64,000 nucleotides of DNA from an uncultured Candidatus Saccharibacteria bacterium (GCA_964357615.1 CAYHMC010000003.1:34678-98677); one strand, 5' to 3'. Shown: positions 7,549 through 59,315, counted from the stretch's first letter. Made by a program: numbers and translations. The notes: a model not told the origin generated them from the letters alone.

Positions 7549-8127
7549 ATGAGAATAGGAGAAAGGCGAGAACAACTAATGGGCGGAGAAGGAAAAAAGT
7601 TTGGCAAAGATTTTGAAATAGATCTATTTGGACTACCAAGAGTTGACGACCCTAAATATCGCGAGGAATTAGAAAGAGTGAAAGATAAGCAATCTGGTTA
7701 TGTGCCATTTAGGGAGGCATTGGGTCTAGTCAGTAAAATTCAACCAAGAAAATATCGTCCTTTTTCAATTAAACTCACTCATGAAATAGCTAGGGCCTTG
7801 GGTCAAAATAAAAATCCTGACATTAATGATTCTAGGATTCGTTTTTATACAACGGTTGATACTCCACTTGATACATTTCATGGGGCAGATGCCATTATAG
7901 AAGTACGGAGGGAAGGAAAAGAACCTATTCAAATTCGATTGGGAGCAACAATGGCCGATGAATATACCAAAGATAATAGGCAATCAAAAAAATCTGATGT
8001 TGAAATAGAAGCATCGTGGCTCAATCTTGAAGACGAAGAAGCCTTAGATAAGGAAAAAATACCAGAACTTGCAGCGCGAGTAATTAGCCAATTAGAAGAA
8101 AAAGTTATGCCAAAAGAACCTGCTTAA
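7549..8127 (+). CDS. Hypothetical protein
   Basis: ORF directly downstream of trpS, co-oriented. No recognisable motifs. Confidence 0.45.
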   Translation: MRIGERREQLMGGEGKKFGKDFEIDLFGLPRVDDPKYREELERVKDKQSGYVPFREALGLVSKIQPRKYRPFSIKLTHEIARALGQNKNPDINDSRIRFYTTVDTPLDTFHGADAIIEVRREGKEPIQIRLGATMADEYTKDNRQSKKSDVEIEASWLNLEDEEALDKEKIPELAARVISQLEEKVMPKEPA

Positions 8128-8129
8128 AA

Positions 8130-9920
8130 TTATTTTAATCCAATCTGTAGCTCATATAACTTTTTATATGAGCCATCTTTAACTTTGATAAGCTCGTTAT
8201 GTGTTCCACGCTCAATAATTTTTCCTTTATCTAAGACTAGTATTAAATCAGCTTTTCTAACTGTGCTCAAACGATGAGCAATAATAAATGTGGTACGCCC
8301 TTCCATAAGTTTTTCGAGTGATTCAGTAATATATTTCTCATTCTTAGCATCAAGTGCTGAAGTGGGCTCGTCTAAAATTAAAATCCGCGGATTTCGAAGT
8401 ATTGCTCTCGCAATTGCAATGCGCTGTTTTTGACCAGCCGACAACCTAATGCCTCTATCTCCAACTCTTTGATTATATTTTTTAGGAAATTTACTTATAA
8501 ATTCATCTGCGTGAGCCATCTTTGATGCCTCGAGCATTTTTTCATTACTCGCACCAAAAGAACCATATTTAATATTATTTTTTATAGTCTCGTTAAATAA
8601 AATTGGTTCCTGAGCAACAACTGCGATAAACGAGCGCAAAGATATAAGGTCGGCTCGCGAGATGTCATGATGATCAATTAAAATTCTTCCTTTTGTTGGT
8701 TTATAATAATATGACATTAAATCTGTAAGTGTAGATTTACCAACTCCTGATTCTCCGACCAAAGCAACAATTTGACCAGATGAAACCTTAAAGGTAATAT
8801 CATGCAAAATTGAATTCTGTCCCCTACCATATTTAAAACTTACATTCTCAAATTCCACATTTCCTTTAATATCAGAAAATACAAAAGCATTGCTTGGTAC
8901 ATACTCTTCCTCTGCTGTTCCTAATATTTTTTCAGACCTCTGAATTGCTATTAAGCCATTTTGTATAAGATCCCAATTTGCCCCAACGCGATAAAAAGGA
9001 CCGAAAATTATAGCAGCGTAGCCATTAAAGGCGGCAAGTTCTCCCAATGTGATTCGCCCACTGCTTACAAAAAACACAGAAATAACAAAAATAGAGAGTT
9101 GTGTAAATGTAACAATTAATCTTTGAGATAAATTAAGGTTTGAAAAAACTTTTATATATTCTGTCCAGTAATGCACTGTTCCATATGTAAAGTTTTTTTC
9201 TAGTTTTCTTTTTTCAAAATTTTCAGCAGTTCCCTGTTTTACCGCAGAAACATTTATTACTGAATCATATGCCTCTCCATATGCCTTGTTGTAGGCTTTA
9301 TTCATTGATTGAAGCACTCCAGTATATTTGGGCGTAACAATTACTATAACTAATAAAAAAATGAAAAGTCCACCAAAAAGCACTGCTGTTAAAATTGGAT
9401 CAATAAAAATTACAATAAAAAAAGCTATAACTACACTAAAAATATCTGGTGCAAGATTTATAATAACTTGACCTATGATATTACTAATTCTTCCCGCAGC
9501 GCGCTCAACACGATTTATAACCTCCCCCATTTTGTGCTTCTTGTGAAATCCAAGCGGAGAATTAAGAAGGTGCGTCATTCCCTCTACAATATAATCGCTC
9601 TCTACTAAGGCATTTATTCTTTCGGACTCAACACTTTTATAACGCTCGGCAAAATCTGTTGTAATTTTAAATATAGCCCAAATAACCAAAAGGGCTACAA
9701 GAGGCGAAACGGGATATCCAAAAAATACAAACGGCAAAACATTTCCAAGAAGAGCATCGAAGTATTTTCCTACTAAATAAGGAACAATTGCGCTACCAAT
9801 AGCAGAAATTACACTTACTACAACTAAAATAACTATCTTTTTTTGATAGGGTTTTAAATATCTAGTAATTACTGTGATTCCATCTTTAAATTCGCTGTAA
9901 GTTATTTTCTTTTTAGCCAT
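8130..9920 (-). CDS. ABC exporter, fused permease/ATPase (MsbA-like)
   Basis: Six-TM N-terminal half. Walker A GESGVGKST, signature LSAGQKQRIAIARA, Walker B ILILDEP. Confidence 0.85.
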   Translation of the reverse strand: MAKKKITYSEFKDGITVITRYLKPYQKKIVILVVVSVISAIGSAIVPYLVGKYFDALLGNVLPFVFFGYPVSPLVALLVIWAIFKITTDFAERYKSVESERINALVESDYIVEGMTHLLNSPLGFHKKHKMGEVINRVERAAGRISNIIGQVIINLAPDIFSVVIAFFIVIFIDPILTAVLFGGLFIFLLVIVIVTPKYTGVLQSMNKAYNKAYGEAYDSVINVSAVKQGTAENFEKRKLEKNFTYGTVHYWTEYIKVFSNLNLSQRLIVTFTQLSIFVISVFFVSSGRITLGELAAFNGYAAIIFGPFYRVGANWDLIQNGLIAIQRSEKILGTAEEEYVPSNAFVFSDIKGNVEFENVSFKYGRGQNSILHDITFKVSSGQIVALVGESGVGKSTLTDLMSYYYKPTKGRILIDHHDISRADLISLRSFIAVVAQEPILFNETIKNNIKYGSFGASNEKMLEASKMAHADEFISKFPKKYNQRVGDRGIRLSAGQKQRIAIARAILRNPRILILDEPTSALDAKNEKYITESLEKLMEGRTTFIIAHRLSTVRKADLILVLDKGKIIERGTHNELIKVKDGSYKKLYELQIGLK

Positions 9921-9971
9921 ATAGCTATTATATAACGAATAACAGCAATTTAGTTACAAAAAAAGACCGCC

Positions 9972-10124
9972 TCAGTTGTTCTGGGCGATCCGGTGAAGTT
10001 CGCGCTTTTCTTGTCTGCGGTCATAGCCGTGCTTTCCTTTCTTAGTGGAATGATATCCACCAGTTTGTCTTGGTAGTGGAACACGCATCATTGCAAGCGG
10101 ATTCTTTGCTTTTACTTTTTTCAC
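9972..10124 (-). CDS. Small basic protein (50 aa, GTG start), GC-rich cassette 1 gene A
   Basis: SD GAAGGAGG sits 4 nt before the GTG start. ORF is MKKVKAKNPLAMMRVPLPRQTGGYHSTKKGKHGYDRRQEKRELHRIAQNN. An intrinsic terminator (GATCGCC…GGCGGTC plus T7) follows the stop. Not in the ORF track (<60 aa). Confidence 0.4.
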   Translation of the reverse strand: MKKVKAKNPLAMMRVPLPRQTGGYHSTKKGKHGYDRRQEKRELHRIAQNN

Positions 10125-10459
10125 TTTTCCTCCTTCGGTAAGTCGTAGCTTTAGCGAAGGTTACCCTTCATTAGTTTTTCTACTAGCTATAGTCTCTCCC
10201 TTTCAAAATCCACATTTAAACATGAACTTTAAAAGAAGCCCGAGGGACAAAACAGAGATGCGATTTCTCTGATGTGTCACTCGGGGTATAAATCGCGCAG
10301 TCCGCATACTTGATTGCAATCAAGTAGTTGCGGTTGACAGTGGTTACCGTGTGAATCTTGCAAAATGCACACAGATGCCTCCACTGCCTAACTCCTCTCA
10401 TTTCATCGCAAGGGTTGGCACGGTTTGGATTGGCTGCGCAACCAACCACCCGTAGATTT

Positions 10460-10714
10460 CTATTTGCGACGCTTGCGACTCTTGCCACCGCCACTCTTCA
10501 ATCCTTGAACCATCATCTGGAAACCTACGTAGATGATCCCAAGAATCACCACGTAGTTCAAAATGTGCTCGAGGAGTGGAGTTATGTGGTTTACAGCCAC
10601 AATTCCAAGTCCCGGAACCACAGAGAGGAACACAAGGACGAGAAACCCAATCGTCCAGAGACCTCTGGGAGGAAAGAAAAGATATCTTCCCCATGCTTCG
10701 AAAAAATCTCTCAT
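10460..10714 (-). CDS. Small membrane protein (84 aa, two TM helices), cassette 1 gene B
   Basis: SD GAGGAG sits 8 nt before the ATG. Two hydrophobic helices and a basic C-terminus. GC-rich codon usage unlike the flanking genes. Confidence 0.45.
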   Translation of the reverse strand: MRDFFEAWGRYLFFPPRGLWTIGFLVLVFLSVVPGLGIVAVNHITPLLEHILNYVVILGIIYVGFQMMVQGLKSGGGKSRKRRK

Positions 10715-11064
10715 ACTCTTTTCTCCTCGCTCAAATTTTTATTTGAGCTGTTATTGGTTTTTGATGTGCTGTCATTGCTTCCTTTCAAAATATTTATTGA
10801 GTTAAATATTTTGAAAGGAACCCGAGAGAGTCGACCGGCAATTTCTTGCTCGGCTCGCTCCCTCGGGAAAACGGGTTTTTCTCCGGCTATAAACCCGAAA
10901 ACGGTTCTGCTTTTTTTTGAGTCCGAGAGGGGGATCGGCCCTTCACAGCTGGCTTCTGCCCTCTCGGTGGTAGGTTTTTGCTGAAAACCTTTCCCCAAAA
11001 CAGCGCGCGCAATCCAGGTCAGGCACCTGGGAGCAGGAAGGATTTGGAGTCGTTTAGCACTCCG

Positions 11065-11298
11065 TTATCCTGCTCGTTCGCTTTGAGTCCGGAATGGACC
11101 CCTCACCCGACCCGGGCGAGCAAGCCTATCGTCCTGAACGAATCGGCATGGCAGCGAACCGCCTACATTCTGCATCGAGTGGCCAAACTCGTATGCAGAC
11201 CTCTGCTGAACACATGGGATTTTCCCCTGTGACCCCGTACCCGGATGGCTGCGCGCGTCCATCTGTACAGGAATTAAGATTTTTCTTCGGTAAGCCAT
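11065..11298 (-). CDS. Questionable small ORF (77 aa), cassette 1 gene C; start lies inside the repeated leader element and has no SD
   Basis: Open frame in GC-rich DNA. The region is full of hairpins and may instead be non-coding. Confidence 0.2.
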   Translation of the reverse strand: MAYRRKILIPVQMDARSHPGTGSQGKIPCVQQRSAYEFGHSMQNVGGSLPCRFVQDDRLARPGRVRGPFRTQSERAG

Positions 11299-11578
11299 AG
11301 CTTTAAACGAAGGCTACCCTAATTTCTGTACAGATGATTTACATACCTACTTAAAAAATTTAGCGAAGAACTTTTCTGTTTCGTCCTGAGCTTGTCGAAG
11401 GACTCATCAGTACGAGCATACACTCGTAGACAGAAAGGAGTTTTAAGGTCTCCTTAAACCCTACGCTGTGGTCTCGCTCATGCTTATCAAAAAGTTTGGC
11501 TAGAACTTTTATGTTCTGCTAATGCAGAACTTTTGCATGAATCCCCACTTACGTCTGCGCAAACGGCCAGAGCAACCC

Positions 11579-11857
11579 TTAACCGATACTCAGGTCAAGT
11601 ATTTGTCCGACGTAATCCTTAACATCAACACCTTGCGGTGGAGCGCCAAGAACCACGTACAGACAACGGTCGCTGTAGGCGGATGACATAGCTCGGAAGT
11701 CTGCGCTAATATTCTTAGCCGCAAGCGTCCGACGCACATGCGCAATCCGCCTCTGGCAGGTAGGACAACCATCCGCTTCGGCTACTTCGAAAAGAATGTT
11801 GCCATTCTCCTCCAGTATCGAGCGCGGAGTTGCCCAGCCTTGCACGCGAACTTGCAT
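11579..11857 (-). CDS. Small CxxC (CPTC) protein, thioredoxin/glutaredoxin-like guess, cassette 1 gene D
   Basis: SD GGAGG sits 6 nt before the ATG, and a 7-bp hairpin (CCTCAGA…TCTGAGG) sits just 5' of the SD. The protein contains GCPTCQ. Confidence 0.4.
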   Translation of the reverse strand: MQVRVQGWATPRSILEENGNILFEVAEADGCPTCQRRIAHVRRTLAAKNISADFRAMSSAYSDRCLYVVLGAPPQGVDVKDYVGQILDLSIG

Positions 11858-12039
11858 AATTCACCTCCTTTCATGCCTCAGAGCCATCTGAGGGTTAGTT
11901 GTGAATTATAAATCCATTCTCGAAGAACTTTCAGAAAACAAAATGTTTTCCTGTTAAAACATTCCAATCTTGAAATGCTTTAACAGAAACCCGAATTTTG
12001 TCTCGGGCGGGACACTCGTTTTTCCGGATAACGAGAAAC

Positions 12040-12273
12040 CTACATCGCGAGCTGGGGCTCCTTACGAACTGGGAGTCCCAGCTGGGCGAGTTCGGCGCGA
12101 ACCTTTTGGACCAGCGGACGGTCCGGAAGATTCACTTGCAAGGTAGCTTTACAGCCCTTGCACTTGCCGACCTGACCCAAGAGAGCAAGACGAATGCCCT
12201 CTCGCGGTGAGCGATGCGGACGATTTCGATGTCCGCATTCCTCACAGTAAACATAGAATGGTTTAAAGAACAT
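12040..12273 (-). CDS. Small zinc-ribbon protein (CxxC…CxxC), cassette 1 gene E
   Basis: SD GGAGG sits 4 nt before the ATG. Cys pairs YCEECGH and KCKGCK are spaced 24 aa apart. Confidence 0.4.
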   Translation of the reverse strand: MFFKPFYVYCEECGHRNRPHRSPREGIRLALLGQVGKCKGCKATLQVNLPDRPLVQKVRAELAQLGLPVRKEPQLAM

Positions 12274-12629
12274 TCGACCTCCGATTTCAACCCTAACCTG
12301 CTATTTCTAGTCAGGATTTTACAGGGCGTGATTCCTTAAGGAGAGACCACAGCAAAAGTTCAAATTACTATTTATAACTATGCTAAACTTTTTTCTATGG
12401 CCTCCCCTAAAGGAGGCGGGAGAGATATGTTTAGGTCTGTTATTTTGTAGTTACGACCAATCATCATATCTGCACCCCATATTTATTTTCTGCGGTCATT
12501 ATACTCGATTTTTATGTATTTGTCAAGTGTCGGTGACAAACCGCTAAAATAAGCCTTATTTACTATATTTTATAAGAAAATTACTCTTTATTACTATGTC
12601 AAAATAGATAGACTTAGTTTTTAATATAC

Positions 12630-12658
12630 TTGACTAAAAGTAAATTATATGTTACAAT
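12630..12658 (+). promoter_or_regulatory. Consensus sigma70-type promoter (TTGACT-17-TACAAT) driving a non-coding unit
   Basis: The -35 TTGACT is at 12630, then a 17-nt spacer, then -10 TACAAT at 12653. Confidence 0.5.
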
Positions 12659-12664
12659 CTGCTC

Positions 12665-12938
12665 GAATGTGGCTATTCTGGTTTTTGTTTGGGCCAAGCT
12701 ATGTTCAGAGTCTGCGCAACCCTCGACTAAGTCGAGGTGGGGCTAAGGAGGTGCCAAATGAAGCTAGGCGGATCAGGTATCTAAAGCAACTCAATTCTGT
12801 GGTCTCTTTTGCAATCACATAGTCTGCTAGGCCAGAGAACAGCAACCAAAAAAAGTCAGTTCAATAGGCATTCCGATATAATTAAATATATCAACTTCCG
12901 GAGGCACCACCATGTGGCAAGCCTCCACTTTTTATTTT
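12665..12938 (+). ncRNA. Candidate structured sRNA (~270 nt), identity unresolved (6S-like architecture possible)
   Basis: Runs from the promoter to an intrinsic terminator (CCGGAGGC…GCCTCC plus T-run, 12898..12938). No ORF beyond 8 codons. The 5' end (GGTTTTTGTTTGGGCCAAGCTATG) pairs with the 3' end (CATAG.GCTAGGCC…AACCAAAAA). Confidence 0.35.
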
Positions 12939-13025
12939 AGCCTACAACTTTAATGCTAATTTTTAATCAAAATTAAAAAATCCAAAGAATTTATTCTTTG
13001 GATTGTAACAACCATAAAAGCTAAC

Positions 13026-13822: not shown

Positions 13823-16800
13823 CTAATGACTTTTTAATCCCACCCACACATCGCTTTCTTCGATTTTAGTCTCTATTTCTGCATCAATTTTATTCGTGCG
13901 CTTTAAATTAAGTTTTGTAGCACCCACCTGCTTAATAAATTCTTCACTATGACGTTCAATAATACCTCCGAATTGCTTTGAATCTAAATAGATTTCTATT
14001 TTATTTTTTGGTTGCAATTCAGCTTTTTGTCTTAATTCTTGCACAAGCCTTATAAATTCTCGAAGTATTCCTTCTTCGCGAAGCTCAGGTGTAATTTTTG
14101 TATCTAATTCAACACTCACATCTTTAAGTGTGTCGGAAATTTTTATTTCTTTAACATTAATTTCTTCTTTCAGAATACTAATAAGTTCTTTTTCTTTTAC
14201 AATCTTCGAAGCATCAGATTTTTTAGAAATATAAAGAACCGAAAGTGGTTGTCTAACTTTTATTCCAGCCTCTGCGCGCTTCGCTAATGCTTCGGTTGCG
14301 AGAGATCGCACCCAATGCATATTTTCAAGCAAGTTATTATCAATATGTTTTTTACTTACCACTGGCCAATCCTCAATATGAATTGAATCTTTATGCTCCC
14401 CACTTAAATTCAAAGACTTATAGATTGATTCTCCAAAAAATGGAGCGAATGGGGCCATAAGTTTTGCAATTTCTAAAATTGCAAAGCCCAAAGTTGCCGA
14501 ACAATCCTTAAAATCATTATTATCTTCTGGCCTCTGGAGACGACGACGAGAACGCCTTATGTACCATCTTGATAAATTATCTATCAGTTCTTCAATTGCT
14601 TTTGCTGCATTGCCAACTTCATATTTTTCTAATTCTTCTGTAACTTTCAATATTGTTTTGTTTAAACTTGCCAAAATCCACTTATCTAAAATATGTTTTG
14701 ATTTTAAATTTTTAAATACAGGGATTGGACTCTTATCTGCGTACATTTCATAAAAAACAAAAGAATTATACAAAATATTAAAAACTCTATTTTGAACTTT
14801 TTTAATATCAATTTCATCAAAGTTTTTTGTTTCTCCTGGGGCATTGATTGTATAAAAATACCACCTAATAGCATCAACACCATATTTAGCAATTACATCC
14901 CAGGGATTTACAACATTGCCCTTAGACTTCGACATTTTTTGCCCAAATTTATCATTAATAAGTCCAAGACAAATCACATTTTTAAATGGTGGCTCTTTAT
15001 GTCCCAGTAGCGTCCCAACCGTAAGGAGCGTATAAAACCAACCGCGCGTTTGATCGATTGCTTCACAAATAAAATCAGCTGGGTATGGAAATTCTTTTAA
15101 TCCTAGTCGTCTATCGTCTTTAACCAATGGATTACTTTTTTTGTATTTATTATCAACTGCAAACGGATAATGGGCTGATGCAAGTGGCATTGCGCCAGAA
15201 TCAAACCAAACATCGGCAACTTCTTTTATTCGCATCATCTTTCCATTACACTTTTTACATTTTAATACTACTTCATCTATGAAGGGGCGGTGCATATCAA
15301 GCTCGCCCTGTGTGTTATATGGCCAATTATTTAATTTTACTTTACGCGACTCACCAACCCGAATATAATCCATAGCCAACATTTCTTCATTAGAAAAATT
15401 TTTCATAGCACCCTCCATCATCCACAGTGGATCTCCGTGACTAACTATTAGAATGCGCTTATTAACATGGAGCTTATTAATTTCTCTAATAAATCCAAAT
15501 ACTCTCTTTTTTATATCAGTTAAATTTTCTCCCCCAGGCGGTGTTTTTGTAAATTCTTCAGACGGTGAATCAAAGAAAGCTTTGTGTTCTTTGGTTGGTT
15601 TTTCATTGAATATTCCAGCATTTGCTTCTTCTATTCTTTTATCTACAATAACTTTTATATCTGATGCTTTTCCTATTTCTTTGGCTAGCTCTAGTGCGCG
15701 CTTATAGGGAGATGAATAAATCACATCAATTTTTCCCTTTAACTTTTTAGCAATTTCGATTGCTTCTTTTTTACCTTTTTCTGTAAGTGGTTCTATTTTC
15801 CCCTTTGGGCCAGATGCCACAATATCCTTAACATTGTGTAATGCTTCTGTATGGCGCTGTAGCATAAATTCATTACCATAATAATCATGCTCGTTTAACT
15901 CCGATAAACCTTGTATTACATTTTCAATTCCACAATCCTCACAAGACCAAACAGGAAGCGGTGTACCCCAATAACGCTGTCTTGAAATAGCCCAATCTTT
16001 TGCTTCTTTAATCCATTCTCCAAAACGCCCTTCTTTTATGTGCTCTGGTATCCAATTAATTTTTTTATTGGAAGATAGAAGTTGTGGTCGGAGCTTAGAA
16101 ACTTCTATAAACCATGCTGTTCTAGCAAAATAAATAAGCGGAGTAGAACATCTCCAGCAAAAAGGATATTCATGTTCTTGTTTCTCTGACTTATACATCA
16201 ATCCCCTTTTTTCTAAGTCAGCAATGATATCATTGTCTGCGCTTTTGATAAATTTATGCGCTCCTGGGAATCCAGCTACCATATTACCATCGTCATCAAC
16301 TGTCACTGGAATATTTTGATATGAAAAACTATCCACAGATGATTTAATCAAATTAAAATCATCGACACCAAAAGCTGGCGCGATATGAACAAAACCTGTG
16401 CCATCTTCTACTAAAACAAAATCAGCGCTATAGACGCGATAAGAATTATCGCTTGATAGCTTATTGTGCGAAGTTTTATACAATGGTTCGTATTCAAGAC
16501 CAATCAATTTTTTACCAGATATTTTCTCGACAGCTTCTATGCTGTAATCTTCTTTCGTGGGAGGAGGATTTATAGACCAAATATATTCCAGCTTAGCGCC
16601 AGTCGAAAAAGATTTTTTTATAGCGTACTTTGTATATGTAACTCCAGAATTAACTGCGATAGCAACATTAGCTGGAAGTGTCCATGGCGTTGTAGTCCAA
16701 ACCAATAAGTATTCGTTTGTTTTATTTTTTATTTTGAACTTTATGTAAATTGATGGGTCTTTAACTTTTTTATATACACCAGGTTGACCCAACTCATGAC

Positions 16801-17368
16801 TCGCTAAAACCGTTTGACACCTTGGACAATATGGAACAACTTTATAATCTTTGCGTAATAAACCTTTATTTGATATTTGCGACAAAACCCACCAAAGCGA
16901 TTCAATATAATAATTTTCATAAGTAGCATAGGCGTTTTTTAAATCCAACCAAAATCCTATACGATTAGTCATTTTTTCCCACTCATCTTTATATTTCCAA
17001 ACAACTTCTTTAGCTTTTTGATTAAATAATCCTATGCCGAACTGTTCAATATCTTTTTTGTTCTTAATTCCTAATTCTTTTTCAACTTCTATTTCCACGG
17101 GGAGGCCATGAGTATCCCAGCCAGCACGGCGCGGAACATAATAACCACGCATAGTTTTATATCTAAGTATAATATCTTTAAAAACACGGCCCAATATATG
17201 ATGAATACCTGGCCTTCCATTGGCTGTTGGAGGACCTTCGTAAAAAACAAATCTTTCTCCCTTCTCTTTGGTCTTTAAAGTTTTCTCGAAAATTTGATTC
17301 GTTTTCCAATATTCTAAGACTTTTTCTTCAATGTCTGCTAGTTTAAATTCTTTTAGATTTTTTAACAT
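13823..17368 (-). CDS. ileS: Isoleucyl-tRNA synthetase (type 2) carrying an inserted histidine-phosphatase-like domain
   Basis: PPTANG…IHHILG (HIGH region), the CP1 editing domain, KMSKS, and zinc knuckles WSCEDCG and CKKCNG. About 185 aa between the knuckles carry LQRHTE, SSPYKRALELA and IVSHGD (RHG / SHG phosphatase motifs). Confidence 0.9.
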   Translation of the reverse strand: MLKNLKEFKLADIEEKVLEYWKTNQIFEKTLKTKEKGERFVFYEGPPTANGRPGIHHILGRVFKDIILRYKTMRGYYVPRRAGWDTHGLPVEIEVEKELGIKNKKDIEQFGIGLFNQKAKEVVWKYKDEWEKMTNRIGFWLDLKNAYATYENYYIESLWWVLSQISNKGLLRKDYKVVPYCPRCQTVLASHELGQPGVYKKVKDPSIYIKFKIKNKTNEYLLVWTTTPWTLPANVAIAVNSGVTYTKYAIKKSFSTGAKLEYIWSINPPPTKEDYSIEAVEKISGKKLIGLEYEPLYKTSHNKLSSDNSYRVYSADFVLVEDGTGFVHIAPAFGVDDFNLIKSSVDSFSYQNIPVTVDDDGNMVAGFPGAHKFIKSADNDIIADLEKRGLMYKSEKQEHEYPFCWRCSTPLIYFARTAWFIEVSKLRPQLLSSNKKINWIPEHIKEGRFGEWIKEAKDWAISRQRYWGTPLPVWSCEDCGIENVIQGLSELNEHDYYGNEFMLQRHTEALHNVKDIVASGPKGKIEPLTEKGKKEAIEIAKKLKGKIDVIYSSPYKRALELAKEIGKASDIKVIVDKRIEEANAGIFNEKPTKEHKAFFDSPSEEFTKTPPGGENLTDIKKRVFGFIREINKLHVNKRILIVSHGDPLWMMEGAMKNFSNEEMLAMDYIRVGESRKVKLNNWPYNTQGELDMHRPFIDEVVLKCKKCNGKMMRIKEVADVWFDSGAMPLASAHYPFAVDNKYKKSNPLVKDDRRLGLKEFPYPADFICEAIDQTRGWFYTLLTVGTLLGHKEPPFKNVICLGLINDKFGQKMSKSKGNVVNPWDVIAKYGVDAIRWYFYTINAPGETKNFDEIDIKKVQNRVFNILYNSFVFYEMYADKSPIPVFKNLKSKHILDKWILASLNKTILKVTEELEKYEVGNAAKAIEELIDNLSRWYIRRSRRRLQRPEDNNDFKDCSATLGFAILEIAKLMAPFAPFFGESIYKSLNLSGEHKDSIHIEDWPVVSKKHIDNNLLENMHWVRSLATEALAKRAEAGIKVRQPLSVLYISKKSDASKIVKEKELISILKEEINVKEIKISDTLKDVSVELDTKITPELREEGILREFIRLVQELRQKAELQPKNKIEIYLDSKQFGGIIERHSEEFIKQVGATKLNLKRTNKIDAEIETKIEESDVWVGLKSH

Positions 17369-17400
17369 ATTTTACAAATTTACTAATCAAAGAGTTATTA

Positions 17401-17557
17401 GGCCTGTTCCGCAATAATTTTCGTAGCGAGAGTTCCAGATTTTGAGCGAAGTGAAGTAAAAATTTCGAGAATGTATATAGAATATACTTCAAGAAATTTT
17501 TACAAAACTGGAGCCAAAATATGGAAATTGTAGTAGAGAATTATTATGGAACAGGTC
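17401..17557. repeat. 157-nt repeat element, copy 1 (covarying terminal helix; second copy at 28949..29105)
   Basis: Core identical or near-identical to copy 2: TTCCAGATTTT..GCGAAG.GAAGTAAAAATTT.GA…GTATATAGAATATACTTCAAGAAATTTTTACAAA..TGGAGC.AAAATATGGAA. Closed by a ~20-bp helix ggcctgttcc…ggaacaggtc. Confidence 0.7.
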
Positions 17558-17734
17558 TATCGTTACATTCTACAGAAAATCCACCATTTTGTGAAACGCA
17601 TGCTATAATAAACTTATGAATCCCGTACGAAATCACGAACACAAATTTAAACATAACATATCTACCATCTTTATTATTAAACATAATATTACGCGAAAAA
17701 ATAAATCATTAGTTCGTGTTCTATTTCGTACGGG

Positions 17735-18616
17735 ATGAATTTTCTTATTCCATTTTTAGGTGCGCTACTTGGCTCTGGAGCAATTATTGTAGATAAAATT
17801 CTTCTTGGCGGAAAAGGCATCACATACAAAAACTATTCTATAATATCATTTCTTGCCGCACTTTTTGTAGCAGGTATAGCATTTATTTTCGTAGGCAAGC
17901 CAATAGTGTCCGAGTTGTTTTATGGCTATGCTGGCTTTCTCTTGATTTTTACGACAATCGCGATTCTAACTTCAAACCTACTTTATTTTCATGCGCTTAA
18001 GCACGACTTGTTAACTGAAATGGAAACGGTGGGTTTATTATCATATATTCCAGTTATAGCTACTTCGTATATTTTTTACACCGATGAACGAAGTTTGCCA
18101 GTTCTTATTTCTGCAATAATAGCATCGCTAGCTGTAATATGGTCACACTGGAAAAAAGGACATCCATTTGTTAGGAAAAGAACTTATCCTTACCTTTTGT
18201 GGTTATTGATTATTGCGCCGATAGAGGCGATTGCTTTTAAAGAAATATTTCTTATGTGGGACCCGATTTCACTTCAGTTTGTGCGTGAAATTATTATAGT
18301 TCCAATTCTGGGTTATATGTATGCAGACACACTAAGGCGTGTTCCAGTGCGGTCTTTTTTTGCAATTTTTTTTACAGGAGCAGTTCTTACTTTAAGTTCT
18401 ATTTTGTTTTTTGTTAGCTACAGCAAATTAGGCATAATCCGTACTACTCTAATTTTTAACTTACAACCATTGCTTGCGTATATCGGAGCGCTTCTTTTTC
18501 TTAAAGAGAAATTTAACAGAAAAAAATTTATTGCATTTTTAATAGTTCTAATTTCAATTGTAGTAGCTCAGAATTACGAACAAATAGAGCTTTTTATAAA
18601 ACAATCCCTACAGTAA
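17735..18616 (+). CDS. Polytopic membrane protein, DMT/EamA-like transporter
   Basis: About 10 predicted TM helices; duplicated 5-TM organisation. Confidence 0.5.
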   Translation: MNFLIPFLGALLGSGAIIVDKILLGGKGITYKNYSIISFLAALFVAGIAFIFVGKPIVSELFYGYAGFLLIFTTIAILTSNLLYFHALKHDLLTEMETVGLLSYIPVIATSYIFYTDERSLPVLISAIIASLAVIWSHWKKGHPFVRKRTYPYLLWLLIIAPIEAIAFKEIFLMWDPISLQFVREIIIVPILGYMYADTLRRVPVRSFFAIFFTGAVLTLSSILFFVSYSKLGIIRTTLIFNLQPLLAYIGALLFLKEKFNRKKFIAFLIVLISIVVAQNYEQIELFIKQSLQ

Positions 18617-28886: not shown

Positions 28887-28948
28887 GTTTCCGGCGATTA
28901 GCCGGATTTTTTATATGAAAAGGATAGAGTCTTAACAAATGAGGAGCT

Positions 28949-29105
28949 GGGCTTCTTGCGAAATACTTCCGAAGCGAAACTTCCAGATTTTCTGCGAAGC
29001 GAAGTAAAAATTTTGAAGTTGTATATAGAATATACTTCAAGAAATTTTTACAAAGTTGGAGCTAAAATATGGAAGTTGGAGTAGAATGTATTTTGCAAGA
29101 AGCCC
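28949..29105. repeat. 157-nt repeat element, copy 2 (closing helix gggcttcttgcgaaatac…gtattttgcaagaagccc)
   Basis: Core about 85% identical to copy 1. The terminal helix sequence differs from copy 1 but stays complementary. Confidence 0.7.
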
Positions 29106-29127
29106 AGGATTTGGTATTATAATCGCT

Positions 29128-38812: not shown

Positions 38813-40690
38813 TTAACCATTAAGAATATTCTTATTTTTATTTGCTCTTCCAAGAAATGCGGTGCTGATGAGTAATGCTCCAATTAAGAAAAAGGTTGCG
38901 GTTCTGATAGGTAATTCCATTTGCCAAACATCAACCAGTAGCAACCTACCTATCACAAAAGCCAAAAGCGCTCCTCCATAAGTAAGCATACCTTTTACTG
39001 CATTTGTTCGACCATAAAAATATGCCATAAGACCAACGATTGTATAAGCAACAAGCGAAATCATTACCGCAGCTTGAGCCCAATCTTTAAAAACAATGTG
39101 AAGCGAAAGCCAAATTAGCGCAAAAACATAGATAGAACTAAGGACGAGGGAGATTATGGTTAGAGATGATTGCGGTATTTTTTCTTTTTCGCTAGCTAGA
39201 TAGAAAAATGCACCAATGCCAAAGAGAGAAAGGGCGAGCATTAAAAGCACAAAAAAGTGTGTATTTAATATGCTGTTATGCCACTCATATAAATCTAGAC
39301 TTCCAAAAGACATAAGTATCGGCCCAATAATAAGAAATGAAAGAGCTTCGCTCTCTTCTCTCCTGCGCAAGACAACATAAGAAATAATTGGGATAAGCGC
39401 GCTTTCTATCGTGTAGGCTATTGTAAGTACAGCTCCATCTAGCTCAGCTGCAGTTGCAGCGGCAAGCATTGCAATACTTACGCCCAAATAGATATAAAAT
39501 GGTTCGCGTCTACCAGTTGCCCTAAAAATACTAAATCCACCGGCAGCGAAAACAACCATCCATGCTGAGATTATTAAGCTTCTCCACTCGGTTGACGCAG
39601 CAGACCAAATCCACAAAAGAAGCAGTAGACCATTTATTGATGCGGTAACAAGATCTGATGTAATTGATTTATCCTGAACCTTTAGAGCTCCTAAAGTGTG
39701 CGAAACATAAAATATTCCAGAGAACGCATATATAAAAAGCAAAACAACTTGAGGATCAGCTCCGCTGTATCCATTCAAATCTGGCAAACTATATAATCCA
39801 ACCATCATTAATCCTGCCGTAATAAGCTCTCTCCACCCCCTAAGTGCAGCTACCCAAAGAGTTCCAATAACAACAACCAGCAAATATGAATATAGTCCTA
39901 TGTGAGTTGTATCAGTCGAATTTGTAAGTAGCGGAGCAAAACCAGCCAAAATTAAACTTGAAAATGCTAAACTGCGACTCTGGTAGCGAACCGAAGCAAA
40001 CGCAACAAGCGCAGTGCTCATAAACATAATTACAAGCGCAGATAAAGGATCGAAAAAATTATAAAGTTGTCGCGCTGCAAATGTAGTTAGTAAAATTACA
40101 GTTGAACCCAAAACAATAAAAGTACCACCTTGATTTAGGTATTTGTTTATTCTCCAAAAACCCAGAATCATAATTAATGCTCCAGAAACAAGACCTAATG
40201 AAATTCGGCCCATCTCACCAATCCAGTCGTTTAATATGGCATAAGTGACAAACCATCCAAAACCAAGAAGAATTAGGAATGCGCCGAGCTTTAAAAGCCA
40301 ATCATCTTTTAGCCATTCAAAAAATCGCCCACTCCAATCCGATTCTGATTCATAAGAACTTGGCATCATTGAATCTCTATCCTGATCTTTATGAAAGTGA
40401 GATGTATAAGGTGCTGGTGGTAAATTTCCTGTTGTACCCAAATTACTGCTTGCCTCGCCAGAAACAAAAACACCTTCATCTTTCTTAAGATTACTCATCT
40501 GTTCTTTGATTTCTCTTCTAGAAAGTTTGTCGATTTGATTTTCTAGATTTCTAACACGCTCCCCAAGTTTTCCAATACGAATAAAAGTAATTATAGGAGC
40601 AACAAAAACAAAAAAGACAATTAAGCCACCGAAGAAAAGTAATGAATCCATCCCGTTAGAAGCAGATCGCGATAAAGATAACGCGATCAA
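38813..40690 (-). CDS. Large polytopic membrane protein (DUF2339-like), N-terminal coiled coil
   Basis: More than 14 predicted TM helices. Abuts the upstream TSP3 gene with no gap. Confidence 0.45.
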   Translation of the reverse strand: MIALSLSRSASNGMDSLLFFGGLIVFFVFVAPIITFIRIGKLGERVRNLENQIDKLSRREIKEQMSNLKKDEGVFVSGEASSNLGTTGNLPPAPYTSHFHKDQDRDSMMPSSYESESDWSGRFFEWLKDDWLLKLGAFLILLGFGWFVTYAILNDWIGEMGRISLGLVSGALIMILGFWRINKYLNQGGTFIVLGSTVILLTTFAARQLYNFFDPLSALVIMFMSTALVAFASVRYQSRSLAFSSLILAGFAPLLTNSTDTTHIGLYSYLLVVVIGTLWVAALRGWRELITAGLMMVGLYSLPDLNGYSGADPQVVLLFIYAFSGIFYVSHTLGALKVQDKSITSDLVTASINGLLLLLWIWSAASTEWRSLIISAWMVVFAAGGFSIFRATGRREPFYIYLGVSIAMLAAATAAELDGAVLTIAYTIESALIPIISYVVLRRREESEALSFLIIGPILMSFGSLDLYEWHNSILNTHFFVLLMLALSLFGIGAFFYLASEKEKIPQSSLTIISLVLSSIYVFALIWLSLHIVFKDWAQAAVMISLVAYTIVGLMAYFYGRTNAVKGMLTYGGALLAFVIGRLLLVDVWQMELPIRTATFFLIGALLISTAFLGRANKNKNILNG

Positions 40691-40832
40691 TGCTTATTAT
40701 AAAATAACTCGACTTGTATTTAGATTGTATTTTCATATTTGTAAAAATAGTGATCGCGGCTTCTAACGGGATCCATTTATTAATTATAGTGTTATTTACG
40801 ATATTATCACTGTGGATAATATTCTTAAATTT

Positions 40833-57396: not shown

Positions 57397-57425
57397 TTGA
57401 CATTTTCATTTTTTTATGCTAATAT
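57397..57425 (+). promoter_or_regulatory. Consensus sigma70 promoter TTGACA-17-TAATAT in an intergenic region with no downstream ORF
   Basis: Exact -35 hexamer, 17-nt spacer, and a near-consensus -10. Confidence 0.5.
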
Positions 57426-57431
57426 TTGTAC

Positions 57432-57632
57432 GATATTTGTTCTTTGTTTGGGTCTGTGGGCGGGAATTTCTTTTAGCACCAAGGATTGTCTGGCTTCGGC
57501 TGGACTTCTCCTCGAAGGAATTCTAACCTCTTTTTATTTTAAGAAGAGACTAATTTAGTCCCTCCCACCAGTTTTGCTGATTATTCGGCAAAAGTGGCGG
57601 GGGGGCATATGCCCACAGACCCAAACAAAAAA
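57432..57632 (+). ncRNA. Candidate structured sRNA (~200 nt), 6S-like closed-hairpin architecture; identity unresolved
   Basis: TTGTTTGGGTCTGTGGGC (57444..57461) pairs perfectly with GCCCACAGACCCAAACAA (57611..57628). Internal hairpins, including a UUCG loop. No ORF. Confidence 0.35.
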
Positions 57633-59315
57633 CTACCAATTTAAAGGACCGGTTATCCTTTCCACCTCATCTAAAGTAGTAATCCCTAGAAGAGCTCGCA
57701 AAATACCCGCCTGCTGAATTGTTACAATACCCAATGATTTAGTAGCGGTCTTTATATCAACATCGGTTACTTCTTTTGAAATCAGCTGACTTACTAAGTC
57801 GGTTACTTTTAGAATTTCCATTATGGCAATTCTTCCTTTGTAACCTATGCCATTACAAGCGCTACAACCCACTGGTTGGTATAAAATTATATTTTTATAT
57901 TTATCTTGTGGCACCGTGCTGGGGAGAGACTGTAAAAATGTAGAAATTTTAGGTTTGAATTTTTCTGTTGCCTCGGTTTGAGGTTTTTTGCATTTATCAC
58001 AAAGACGCCTAACTAAACGCTGTGCGATTATTAAATTTATTGCCGGTCCCATAATAGCTGGCTTTGCTCCCAAATCAACAAGCCTCGGAATAGCTCCGAA
58101 AGAATCATTTGTGTGTAGTGTTGAAAATACAAGATGTCCGGTAAGTGCAGCGTTCAGTGCAATGTCTGCTGTTTCATAGTCTCTTATTTCTCCTATTAAA
58201 ATTACATCTGGGTCTTGCCTAACAATCGAACGCAATCCGCTTGCAAATGTGTAACCTGCTTCGGGGTTTACTTGGGTTTGTTCAACTCCTGGTAATTTAT
58301 ATTCAATCGGGTCTTCTATGGTAATCATTTTGTCCTCTGGTTTATTTACATGAACTAAAAAAGCGTATAGTGTTGTGGTTTTCCCTGAGCCAGTTGGTCC
58401 AGTGTTTAAAATCATTCCATTGGGTCGCTGAAGTTCTACTTCGATAATCTTAAGGTCTTCGTCGTTTAGGCCAAGGTCTTTTAGAGAAAGTAAAATTGTA
58501 TCTGGATCAAGAACTCTTAAAACTACGGTTTCTCCGTATTCAGACGGGAGAGCTGACGCCCTAATTTCGATTGTTTTTTTACCCATCTTCACCGAGAATC
58601 TTCCATCCTGAGCTGCATTGTGAATATTAAGTTTCATTGATGCAAGAAGTTTAATTCGCGAGAGCACCAAAAAATATTCTGACTGTGGAAAACCAGAATA
58701 TATTTCATGCAACAAACCATCAATACGAAGTCTAAATTTTACTCCTTCTTGTTCTGGTTCTAAATGAATATCGGATGCTTTAAGAGAAAGGGCTGCGGCA
58801 AGTACAATTTCTAAAACCTGTCCCGTGGCAACCTGCGACTTCAGAGCACTATCAATTGTTATTCGCGTTGCCTCTAAAGAAGAAATGCTCTCTTGAAGTT
58901 TGATTAATCTATCGTTATCTATCTCAACTTTTCCAGTAATATCTCCTAATTTTTTTCCAGCCAAATCATAAAAACTCCAAACTCTTTCGATGCCAGACAT
59001 AGAACCAATTAGTATGTCTATTTTTTTTGCTTTTTTAAGTAGTTGGTCGATTGTTTTTTTTGTGTTTGGTAATGAAGGGTCATAAGCAACAACAATAAGT
59101 TTATCTCTTTTTTCAGCAAGAATTGCGCATTTTGCTTCGTGTGCTTCTTCTTTTGATAAAATCGATACGGCGCTCACTTGAATTGGTGCTGTTTTTAGAT
59201 CAATATAAGTATATCCAAGTTTTTCGGCTCTTCGCTTTGCATCGCGCTCCTCTGCCTCTCGTGACATTTTCGTCAGTTTTTCTCCTAGTTTTGGCTTTGA
59301 AGATAAAGATGACAT
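57633..59315 (-). CDS. pilB: Type IV pilus / type II secretion assembly ATPase (PilB/GspE family)
   Basis: Walker A GPTGSGKTTT, an Asp box, a His box, and a C-terminal tetracysteine (CDKC…CSAC). Confidence 0.85.
   Translation of the reverse strand: MSSLSSKPKLGEKLTKMSREAEERDAKRRAEKLGYTYIDLKTAPIQVSAVSILSKEEAHEAKCAILAEKRDKLIVVAYDPSLPNTKKTIDQLLKKAKKIDILIGSMSGIERVWSFYDLAGKKLGDITGKVEIDNDRLIKLQESISSLEATRITIDSALKSQVATGQVLEIVLAAALSLKASDIHLEPEQEGVKFRLRIDGLLHEIYSGFPQSEYFLVLSRIKLLASMKLNIHNAAQDGRFSVKMGKKTIEIRASALPSEYGETVVLRVLDPDTILLSLKDLGLNDEDLKIIEVELQRPNGMILNTGPTGSGKTTTLYAFLVHVNKPEDKMITIEDPIEYKLPGVEQTQVNPEAGYTFASGLRSIVRQDPDVILIGEIRDYETADIALNAALTGHLVFSTLHTNDSFGAIPRLVDLGAKPAIMGPAINLIIAQRLVRRLCDKCKKPQTEATEKFKPKISTFLQSLPSTVPQDKYKNIILYQPVGCSACNGIGYKGRIAIMEILKVTDLVSQLISKEVTDVDIKTATKSLGIVTIQQAGILRALLGITTLDEVERITGPLNW

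Follow-up and report, generated by a model that had tools for sequence, protein, structure and literature searches.

A probable MITE-like family of palindromic elements at two gene promoters of a Patescibacteria genome

The window, the 64-kb stretch of DNA analysed here, has a G+C content of ~35% and holds two gene pairs whose spacers each carry a copy of one palindromic element. At the first site, ileS lies divergent from a gene for an EamA transporter; at the second, a gene for a 69-aa zinc-ribbon-like protein is followed by a gene for a tRNA-binding protein. Judged by sequence, the host belongs to a sparsely sampled CPR (Patescibacteria) lineage of groundwater. Apart from one exact match, the best homologue of its IleRS (1181 aa) is 68% identical, and the named matches are from Parcubacteria/Patescibacteria. 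This IleRS (13823-17368, minus strand) contains a histidine-phosphatase (His_Phos_1) domain at residues 502-664, inside the synthetase, an architecture found in all 120 best homologues listed, of which the organism-named ones are Patescibacteria. A 2-kb contig from a Hainich groundwater metagenome (L004) represents the second locus of the same population; it differs from the window at 2 of 2029 nt and carries an identical copy of the element.

The only long direct repeat in the window is a 119-nt core (17419-17537 / 28967-29085) that aligns ungapped with 87% identity, in agreement with the ~85% of a preliminary description of this DNA. That description had also placed two 157-nt copies correctly; the closing helix that surrounds each core runs two pairs further, to 161 nt. 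The parts of the two copies are:

17399..17559, plus strand: palindromic element, copy 1, 161 nt once the two additional closing pairs are counted (157 nt, 17401-17557, as previously described)
28947..29107, plus strand: copy 2 of the palindromic element, 161 nt (157 nt, 28949..29105, as previously described)
17399..17422, plus strand: 5' arm of the copy 1 closing helix, TAGGCCTGTTCCGCAATAATTTTC (24-nt arms, 83% complementary)
17536..17559, plus strand: 3' arm of the copy 1 closing helix, GAGAATTATTATGGAACAGGTCTA (pair table from the alignment)
28947..28966, plus strand: 5' arm of the copy 2 closing helix, CTGGGCTTCTTGCGAAATAC (20-nt arms, 95% complementary)
29088..29107, plus strand: 3' arm of the copy 2 closing helix, GTATTTTGCAAGAAGCCCAG, which includes TTGCAA, the predicted substitute −35 box
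17456..17503, plus strand: apical hairpin of copy 1, GTAAAAATTT ... GTATAT AGA ATATAC ... AAATTTTTAC
29004..29051, plus strand: apical hairpin of copy 2, an inverted repeat that matches the copy 1 apex

The copies share their orientation, with 11.5 kb between them. A 35-nt stretch free of differences (17472-17506) takes in most of the copy 1 apical hairpin, and the 31-mer at the apex occurs in the window at two sites only, the two copies, where the chance expectation is none. The apical hairpin had been called near-perfect, which holds for copy 2; in copy 1 it is present and less perfect. Conservation is uneven along the element. In the core, 99/114 alignment columns are identical (87%; paired core positions 94%, unpaired 75%), against 29/45 (64%) in the closing helix, where four gap columns stand opposite each other on the two arms. 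Identity changes from 64% to 87% at mirror-image alignment columns 24 and 139, which pair together. Despite the 64% identity, all 22 pairs of the closing helix are formed in both copies. A covariance model (R1) built from these same two copies scores copy 1 at 183 bits on the plus strand and 59.5 bits on the minus strand, and copy 2 at 186.7 bits.

Six-frame translation of the element revealed no ORF conserved beyond nucleotide identity. All six frames, concatenated, were compared with a 5.8-billion-sequence protein collection in a search aimed at spurious ORFs called over other copies, and gave no match at E <= 10. A short ORF that follows a Shine-Dalgarno-like GGAG (from 17521 in copy 1, with an equivalent in copy 2) was judged non-coding; the two peptides have their first six residues alone in common, and the differences in this frame are non-synonymous.

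Each 157-nt copy folds as one uninterrupted rod, at −61.4 kcal/mol (copy 1) and −61.2 kcal/mol (copy 2). The corresponding shuffle means are −24.8 and −28.3 kcal/mol (z −10.6 and −10.1), and 0/200 shuffles fold as well as the real copies. RNAalifold applied to the pairwise alignment gave 57 consensus pairs, every one of which (57/57) is kept in both copies. Two-sided changes affect six pairs of this two-sequence alignment, five in the closing helix (A-U/G-C, C-G/U-A, G-C/C-G, C-G/G-C and U-A/C-G) and one in the core (U-A/C-G). Another five pairs have changed on one side, always between Watson-Crick and G.U on the plus strand, and in copy 2 a one-base deletion in the 5' arm lies opposite a one-base deletion in the 3' arm, forming a paired indel. 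When the 3' partners were slid by 1-3 columns as a control, 0-1 two-sided changes and 33-50% pairing remained. The earlier observation that the terminal helices differ between copies and stay complementary is therefore sound.

The two strands are not equivalent. Plus-strand RNA folds at −64.3 and −65.4 kcal/mol in copies 1 and 2, minus-strand RNA at −50.5 and −55.7 kcal/mol, so that the plus strand is better by 10-14 kcal/mol in both copies because most of the non-Watson-Crick oppositions are G.U on that strand. An unbiased alignment of arm against arm on the plus strand gave G.U:A.C ratios of 4:1 (copy 1) and 3:1 (copy 2), some of these oppositions being common to both copies. This asymmetry is consistent with constraint on a single-stranded form of the plus strand, RNA or DNA, and is the best point in favour of such a constraint, with G.U and A.C counts that are small. 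In a DNA hairpin, moreover, no mismatch destabilises less than G.T.

Copy 1 lies in the ileS-EamA spacer, 31 nt from the ileS start codon (minus strand). The closest relative, L003 (GCA_030680955.1), has the same divergent ileS-EamA arrangement, and its spacer reads, in window orientation, ...TTTTTTAACAT AGTCTAGAATTAAAGTTA-TA-TTTCTATTCTACAGAAATAAGATGGTTTTGTGAA..., where the window has ...TTTTTTAACAT ATTTTACAAATTTACTAATCAAAGAGTTAT-TA-[GGCCTG...157 nt...CAGGTC]-TA-TCGTTACATTCTACAGAAAATCCACCATTTTGTGAA.... At the point of insertion, the empty site AAAGTTA-TA-TTTCTATTCTACAG corresponds to AAAGAGTTAT-TA-[157 nt]-TA-TCGTTACATTCTACAG in the window. The flanks of copy 1 thus align with L003, and the element together with its closing helix is missing there. 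The orthologous spacers of two other relatives (L005 and L006) also lack the element. TA stands on both sides of copy 1 and once at the L003 empty site; it also extends the palindrome.

A consensus scan identified the best promoter-like site near copy 1 on its outer side:

17567..17595, minus strand: predicted ileS promoter TTCACA-17-TAGAAT (10/12 consensus positions; letter-for-letter in L003)

Transcription of ileS is predicted to start at ~17560, ~7 nt after TAGAAT, which is the outer edge of the hairpin. Copy 1 sits at this predicted start, so transcription would run over its minus strand: given a promoter that functions as predicted, the ileS mRNA would open with the minus-strand element (−50.5 kcal/mol), followed by a 31-nt AT-rich leader. 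Both copies had been described as lying upstream of plus-strand genes, which is only partly apt, since copy 1 adjoins minus-strand ileS and is separated from the EamA gene by that gene's own promoter and another inserted element (element B, below).

The signals around copy 2 are:

28890..28916, plus strand: intrinsic terminator of the upstream 69-aa gene, just 5' of copy 2
28932..28937, plus strand: ancestral −35 box TTAACA of the tRNA-binding-protein gene, displaced 160 nt from the −10 box by copy 2
29112..29120, plus strand: extended −10 box TGgTATTAT, 7 nt upstream of the ATG (29128), conserved in L008/L007

Two relatives, L008 and L007, keep this gene pair, a small zinc-ribbon-like gene followed by a tRNA-binding-domain gene. 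From terminator to start codon they read (AGT)CTTAACAA-...-ATTTG(C/A)TATTAT-...-ATG, in which the promoter consists of TTAACA, a 17-nt spacer and TATTAT with a preceding TG, and the element is absent. L008 retains AGTCTTAACAA and L007 retains CTTAACAA, in both cases with the 17-nt spacer and TATTAT after it. The window instead has AGTCTTAACAA, 11 nt, the 157-nt element, 9 nt and TATTAT, so that TTAACA and TATTAT are 177 nt apart rather than 17 nt, an excess of 160 nt. Copy 2 lies between terminator and promoter, and is flanked by CT and AG; no duplication is visible, and the 160 extra nt allow one of <=3 bp. With 7 nt between −10 box and ATG, the mRNA is probably leaderless. The consensus scan pairs TATTAT with TTGCAA (29093-29098, in the 3' arm of the element) at 16-nt spacing, with the TG. 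Copy 2 thus splits the old −35 and −10 boxes, and its TTGCAA is predicted to form a hybrid promoter with TGgTATTAT, as a replacement −35 box.

Relatives have neither copy at the corresponding site, which identifies the elements as insertions specific to this lineage and not as conserved RNA genes. No palindrome is present at either empty site, which means that the closing helix arrived as part of the insertion and was neither a prior feature of the target nor random flank. The promoters at both empty sites are intact and conserved in the nearest relatives, and a single insertion in the lineage of the window is far more probable than precise loss in every relative with the 17-nt spacer restored each time. 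An origin of the closing helix as an inverted copy of target DNA was rejected, as the helices align at 64% in register and the targets in the relatives are unlike them.

The window contains two more hairpin insertions, elements B and C, which belong to a second family; both end in CCCGT and both have clean 6-bp target duplications:

17622-17734 (113 nt; site 17616-17740): element B, ends CCCGTACGAAAT.ACGAAC, duplication ATGAAT
40652-40770 (119 nt; site 40646-40776): element C, ends CCCGTTAGAAGC.GATCGCG, duplication ATCCAT (ATGGAT on the minus strand)

Element B sits directly after codon 2 of the EamA gene, where L003 has the empty site TGCTATAATATTGCTATGAACTTTCTTATTCC. The EamA promoter, TGCTATAAT, is followed by 6 nt and the ATG, and the mRNA is probably leaderless. 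The duplicated ATG at 17616 starts a 40-codon frame that runs through element B and whose TGA overlaps the authentic ATG at 17735 (ATGA), suggesting translational coupling. Element C likewise lies directly after codon 2, in a minus-strand gene for a DUF2339 membrane protein with the promoter geometry TATAAT, 6 nt, ATGGAT. B and C have in common only their CCCGT..GAA termini and the ATGRAT target. The clean target duplications of these two insertions, together with the empty site for element B in L003, indicate that such elements are active in the lineage. A DDE transposon was encountered in a relative: L008 carries an IS1595-like transposase gene (442-1125; weak Zn_ribbon_IS1595 and DDE_Tnp_IS1595 matches) ~9 kb from its empty copy-2 site, so that DDE transposons occur in the clade.

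A hunt for further copies, suggested in the preliminary description, produced no third copy in the window, in ~80 kb of relatives' DNA or in the collections. Run unfiltered, model R1 found no third copy in the 64-kb window and gave a single 26-bit match in the ~80 kb of relatives' DNA, at 16688-16837 of L003. This match was assigned to another hairpin element, outside the family: a 150-nt rod-like hairpin of L003's own, with outer helix AATTAACCACT/AGTGGTTAATT and the inner motif GTCATTGCGAGG../..CCTCGCAAAGAC. A single nt separates its end from a TGGTATTAT box directly adjoining the start codon of the ABC-transporter gene, and this position beside a −10-like box resembles that of copy 2. The conserved 22-mer ATATACTTCAAGAAATTTTTAC had two matches only among 185,579 representative genomes, both in unrelated sequence and judged to be chance (one lies at the 3' end of an apparent coding region). 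In the metagenome collection its sole match was L004; in IMG/VR viral contigs it had none, and one further viral-contig scan gave no match. A small terminator-like hairpin with GCGAAGCGAAGTAAAAATTT from a virus, to which the covariance model had no match, was put down to chance or to unrelated sequence. Phages and plasmids gave no BLASTN match. Nothing in Rfam came near its gathering score; at relaxed thresholds, the only matches were weak ones to plant microRNA precursors, far below threshold, which are generic long hairpins. All inferences made here rest on two copies from one species, within the 64-kb window and the collections searched.

Structured sequence is present elsewhere in the window. 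At 57398-57633, 195 nt of G+C-richer sequence (57439-57633) follow a strong promoter (TTGACA ... TAATAT); they lie between ruvB and a gene for a type II/IV secretion ATPase and are without an Rfam match. The surrounding 57432-57640 (209 nt) folds at −100.8 kcal/mol (z −11) into a branched, very stable structure with a 23-bp closing helix. Either an ncRNA so far unrecognised or one more hairpin insertion could account for it. At 12630-12945, TTGACT-17-TACAAT is followed by ~280 nt closing in a terminator-like hairpin and T-run (GGAGGCACCACCATGTGGCAAGCCTCC TTTTT); with no long ORF, no Rfam match and a modest fold z of −2.4, ~12660-12945 is a candidate ncRNA gene. The region 9920-12500, from an ABC transporter gene to the TrmB gene, is a gene-poor island with small ORFs, within a stretch of raised G+C (0.41 over 8001-12000). 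The hairpin motif CTTCGGTAAG.C.TAGCTTTA.CGAAGG.TACCC occurs in it twice (~10132-10170 and 11288-11320), and the syntenic interval of L003 (14.4-16.8 kb) is likewise without called genes and hairpin-rich.

We consider it probable that the family is a small, non-autonomous, MITE-like palindromic element inserted at the promoters of two genes; its sequence would be new, its class known. The copies are short, non-coding and palindromic, appear dispersed (two in 64 kb), have terminal inverted repeats within each copy, lie as lineage-specific insertions in AT-rich promoter-proximal sites and are without transcription signals of their own, and one end of copy 2 would supply a promoter box, traits that fit this class. 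The terminal repeats tell against this reading: they are 64% identical between copies, against 87% for the core, where one transposase normally needs similar ends, and whereas typical MITEs have their ends most conserved, this element has them least conserved. A target-site duplication is possible at copy 1 (TA), with none visible at copy 2. A Pfam scan of ~45 ORFs of the window found no transposase, integrase, Y1/HUH enzyme or reverse transcriptase, and the window holds neither a longer element with the same ends nor a further match to either end.

The preliminary description had taken the compensatory changes to speak against a MITE and to point to a possible family of small structured RNA genes or a retron-like ncRNA. 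The argument against a MITE is invalid, as such changes are documented in REPINs (PMC3116915) and in bcr1 (PMC3184786); because mobile palindromes show them too, compensatory changes in a long palindrome are by themselves no proof of an RNA gene. A retron msr-msd ncRNA was rejected, there being no reverse transcriptase domain among the ~45 window ORFs scanned; the neighbours of the two copies encode IleRS, the EamA transporter, the 69-aa zinc-ribbon-like protein and the tRNA-binding protein, none of them a reverse transcriptase. A family of RNA genes, in which the plus strand would yield a ~157-nt rod-like RNA with a closing stem constrained in structure only, would account for the six two-sided changes with 0/57 pairs broken, for the plus-strand advantage of 10-14 kcal/mol in both copies and for the excess of G.U over A.C mismatches (4:1 and 3:1), and functional RNAs commonly combine a conserved core with a variable closing stem. 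We nevertheless regard RNA genes as unlikely. The orthologous sites lack the element in every relative examined (L003, L005 and L006; L007 and L008), and a plus-strand consensus scan found no sigma-70-type promoter upstream and no intrinsic terminator downstream of either copy, whereas sigma-70-type promoters are readily visible elsewhere in the same window. The unpaired core is less conserved (75%) than the paired core (94%), the reverse of most functional RNAs, the element is without an Rfam match, and the transcription predicted through copy 1 is of the minus strand only, from the ileS promoter. Nor does the element make a convincing leader common to two tRNA-related genes, a reading we find very improbable: both neighbouring genes, for IleRS and the tRNA-binding-domain protein, deal with tRNA, and copy 1 falls inside the predicted ileS 5' UTR, but the element points in opposite directions with respect to the two genes, copy 2 precedes the −10 box of its gene and hence is outside the mRNA, and relatives express the same genes without the element. 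The opposite polarity relative to local transcription at the two sites, with copy 2 perhaps untranscribed, weighs against a strand-specific RNA gene and a shared leader alike.

The behaviour of the ends calls for some coupling of the two arms, since matched changes are not expected from the independent drift of two protein-binding ends. Selection on a single-stranded hairpin (DNA or RNA), mutational copying from arm to arm and a composite origin are possibilities. Quasipalindrome template switching is such mutational copying of one arm from the other. The G.U-compatible one-sided changes and the better plus-strand fold (by 10-14 kcal/mol) also fit a constraint at the RNA level. In a composite, a ~115-nt core element would have inserted mid-way into two members of a separate short-palindrome family, the closing helix being the older, outer element. 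The abrupt 64%/87% switch at mirror-image positions (columns 24 and 139, which pair) speaks for this origin, and some insertion sequences are known to target the loops of palindromes; IS1397 and ISKpn1, for example, insert into REP/BIME sequences. Yet the window contains no solo outer hairpins at <=3 mismatches, the core boundaries are without direct repeats, and the outer helices still align in register with the core (64%). The empty sites of the relatives also lack the outer hairpin, so that a composite would need two nested insertions per site, and we think it quite unlikely. Insertion of the core into a hairpin already present at each site was rejected because the relatives' empty sites have no hairpin.

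For the MITE-like element, which we prefer, events probably ran as follows. The element inserted into AT-rich, promoter-proximal DNA of a Patescibacteria genome, mobilised in trans by an enzyme presumably encoded elsewhere in the genome. Constraint would act on the continuous single-stranded rod (DNA when mobilised, RNA when co-transcribed) and not on terminal sequence, so that the ends drifted between copies and stayed complementary. Transcription of the element and any regulatory effect are likewise predictions, and effects on neighbouring genes would be by-products. At copy 1, a very stable stem-loop would form the 5' end of the ileS mRNA, where it could shield the mRNA from 5'-end-dependent decay (an RNase J gene is present in the window) or, alternatively, could make it a substrate for a double-strand RNase. 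At copy 2, the insertion splits the promoter and would replace its −35 box with TTGCAA from the element's own arm. A more speculative mechanism, to which we give a low probability, would read the hairpin shape and conserved core and not the termini, through an enzyme acting on the extruded rod or through fold-back copying of the arms. Such shape-reading or fold-back propagation would let the termini diverge and remain complementary, and is a mode undescribed for MITEs or REPINs.

On this evidence, a streamlined Patescibacteria (CPR) genome carries hairpin-type insertion elements. All four hairpin insertions seen in the window (4/4) landed at promoter or start-codon regions, among them the promoter region of the essential ileS, and the sequence of the elements appears to have been used to re-form signals for expression. 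For RNA discovery, the family advises caution about covariation in long palindromes. Should more copies confirm a conserved core with ends that are free and yet complementary, they would point to structure-dependent mobilisation; if true, shape-reading mobilisation would be a new mode of propagation of palindromic elements, in a minimal Patescibacteria genome.

Among known repeats, the closest analogue appears to be the Correia elements of Neisseria (CREE / nemis), and the anatomy also seems near that of bcr1 of Bacillus. The target duplication of CREE is TA, which the possible TA flanks of copy 1 would match; copy 2 is without TA flanks. By eye, no sequence similarity to the CREE consensus is apparent. 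CREE are mostly 153-157 bp, with inverted repeats round a conserved core, are non-coding and lie 5' of genes; they duplicate their target, create promoters at their ends and, when transcribed, form RNase III hairpins (PMC2649163). The element resembles them in size, in its terminal inverted repeats and core, in being non-coding and 5' of genes, in a promoter box predicted at its end and in the long hairpin. Hundreds of CREE copies have conserved ends (the 26-bp Correia repeat, in a few variants), whereas the ends of the element are its most diverged part and co-vary between the two known copies.

The ERIC / IRU sequences of enterobacteria are imperfect palindromes of ~127 bp, intergenic and co-transcribed with their neighbours, that affect mRNA fate. 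They differ from the element in host range and sequence, and ERIC copies share their termini. REPINs, doublets of REP sequences mobilised by RAYTs, are like the element in that the whole forms one long hairpin in single-stranded DNA or RNA; the ~45 window ORFs scanned include no RAYT gene. Compensatory changes across the REPIN hairpin are "common" (PMC3116915). In REPINs, invariant REP 16-mers at the ends enclose a variable central spacer, and the element reverses this arrangement, with ends at 64%, a centre at 87% and a 35-nt identical apex. The bcr1 repeat of the Bacillus cereus group is ~155 bp, MITE-like, variable in distribution among strains and transcribed, with compensatory changes that keep the RNA fold (reviewed in PMC3184786). 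It has 5-bp direct repeats, a cruciform-like fold with two stem-loops and many copies, where the element has no clear duplication, one rod and two copies; the two are alike in size, in their MITE-like nature, in a patchy distribution and in their compensatory changes.
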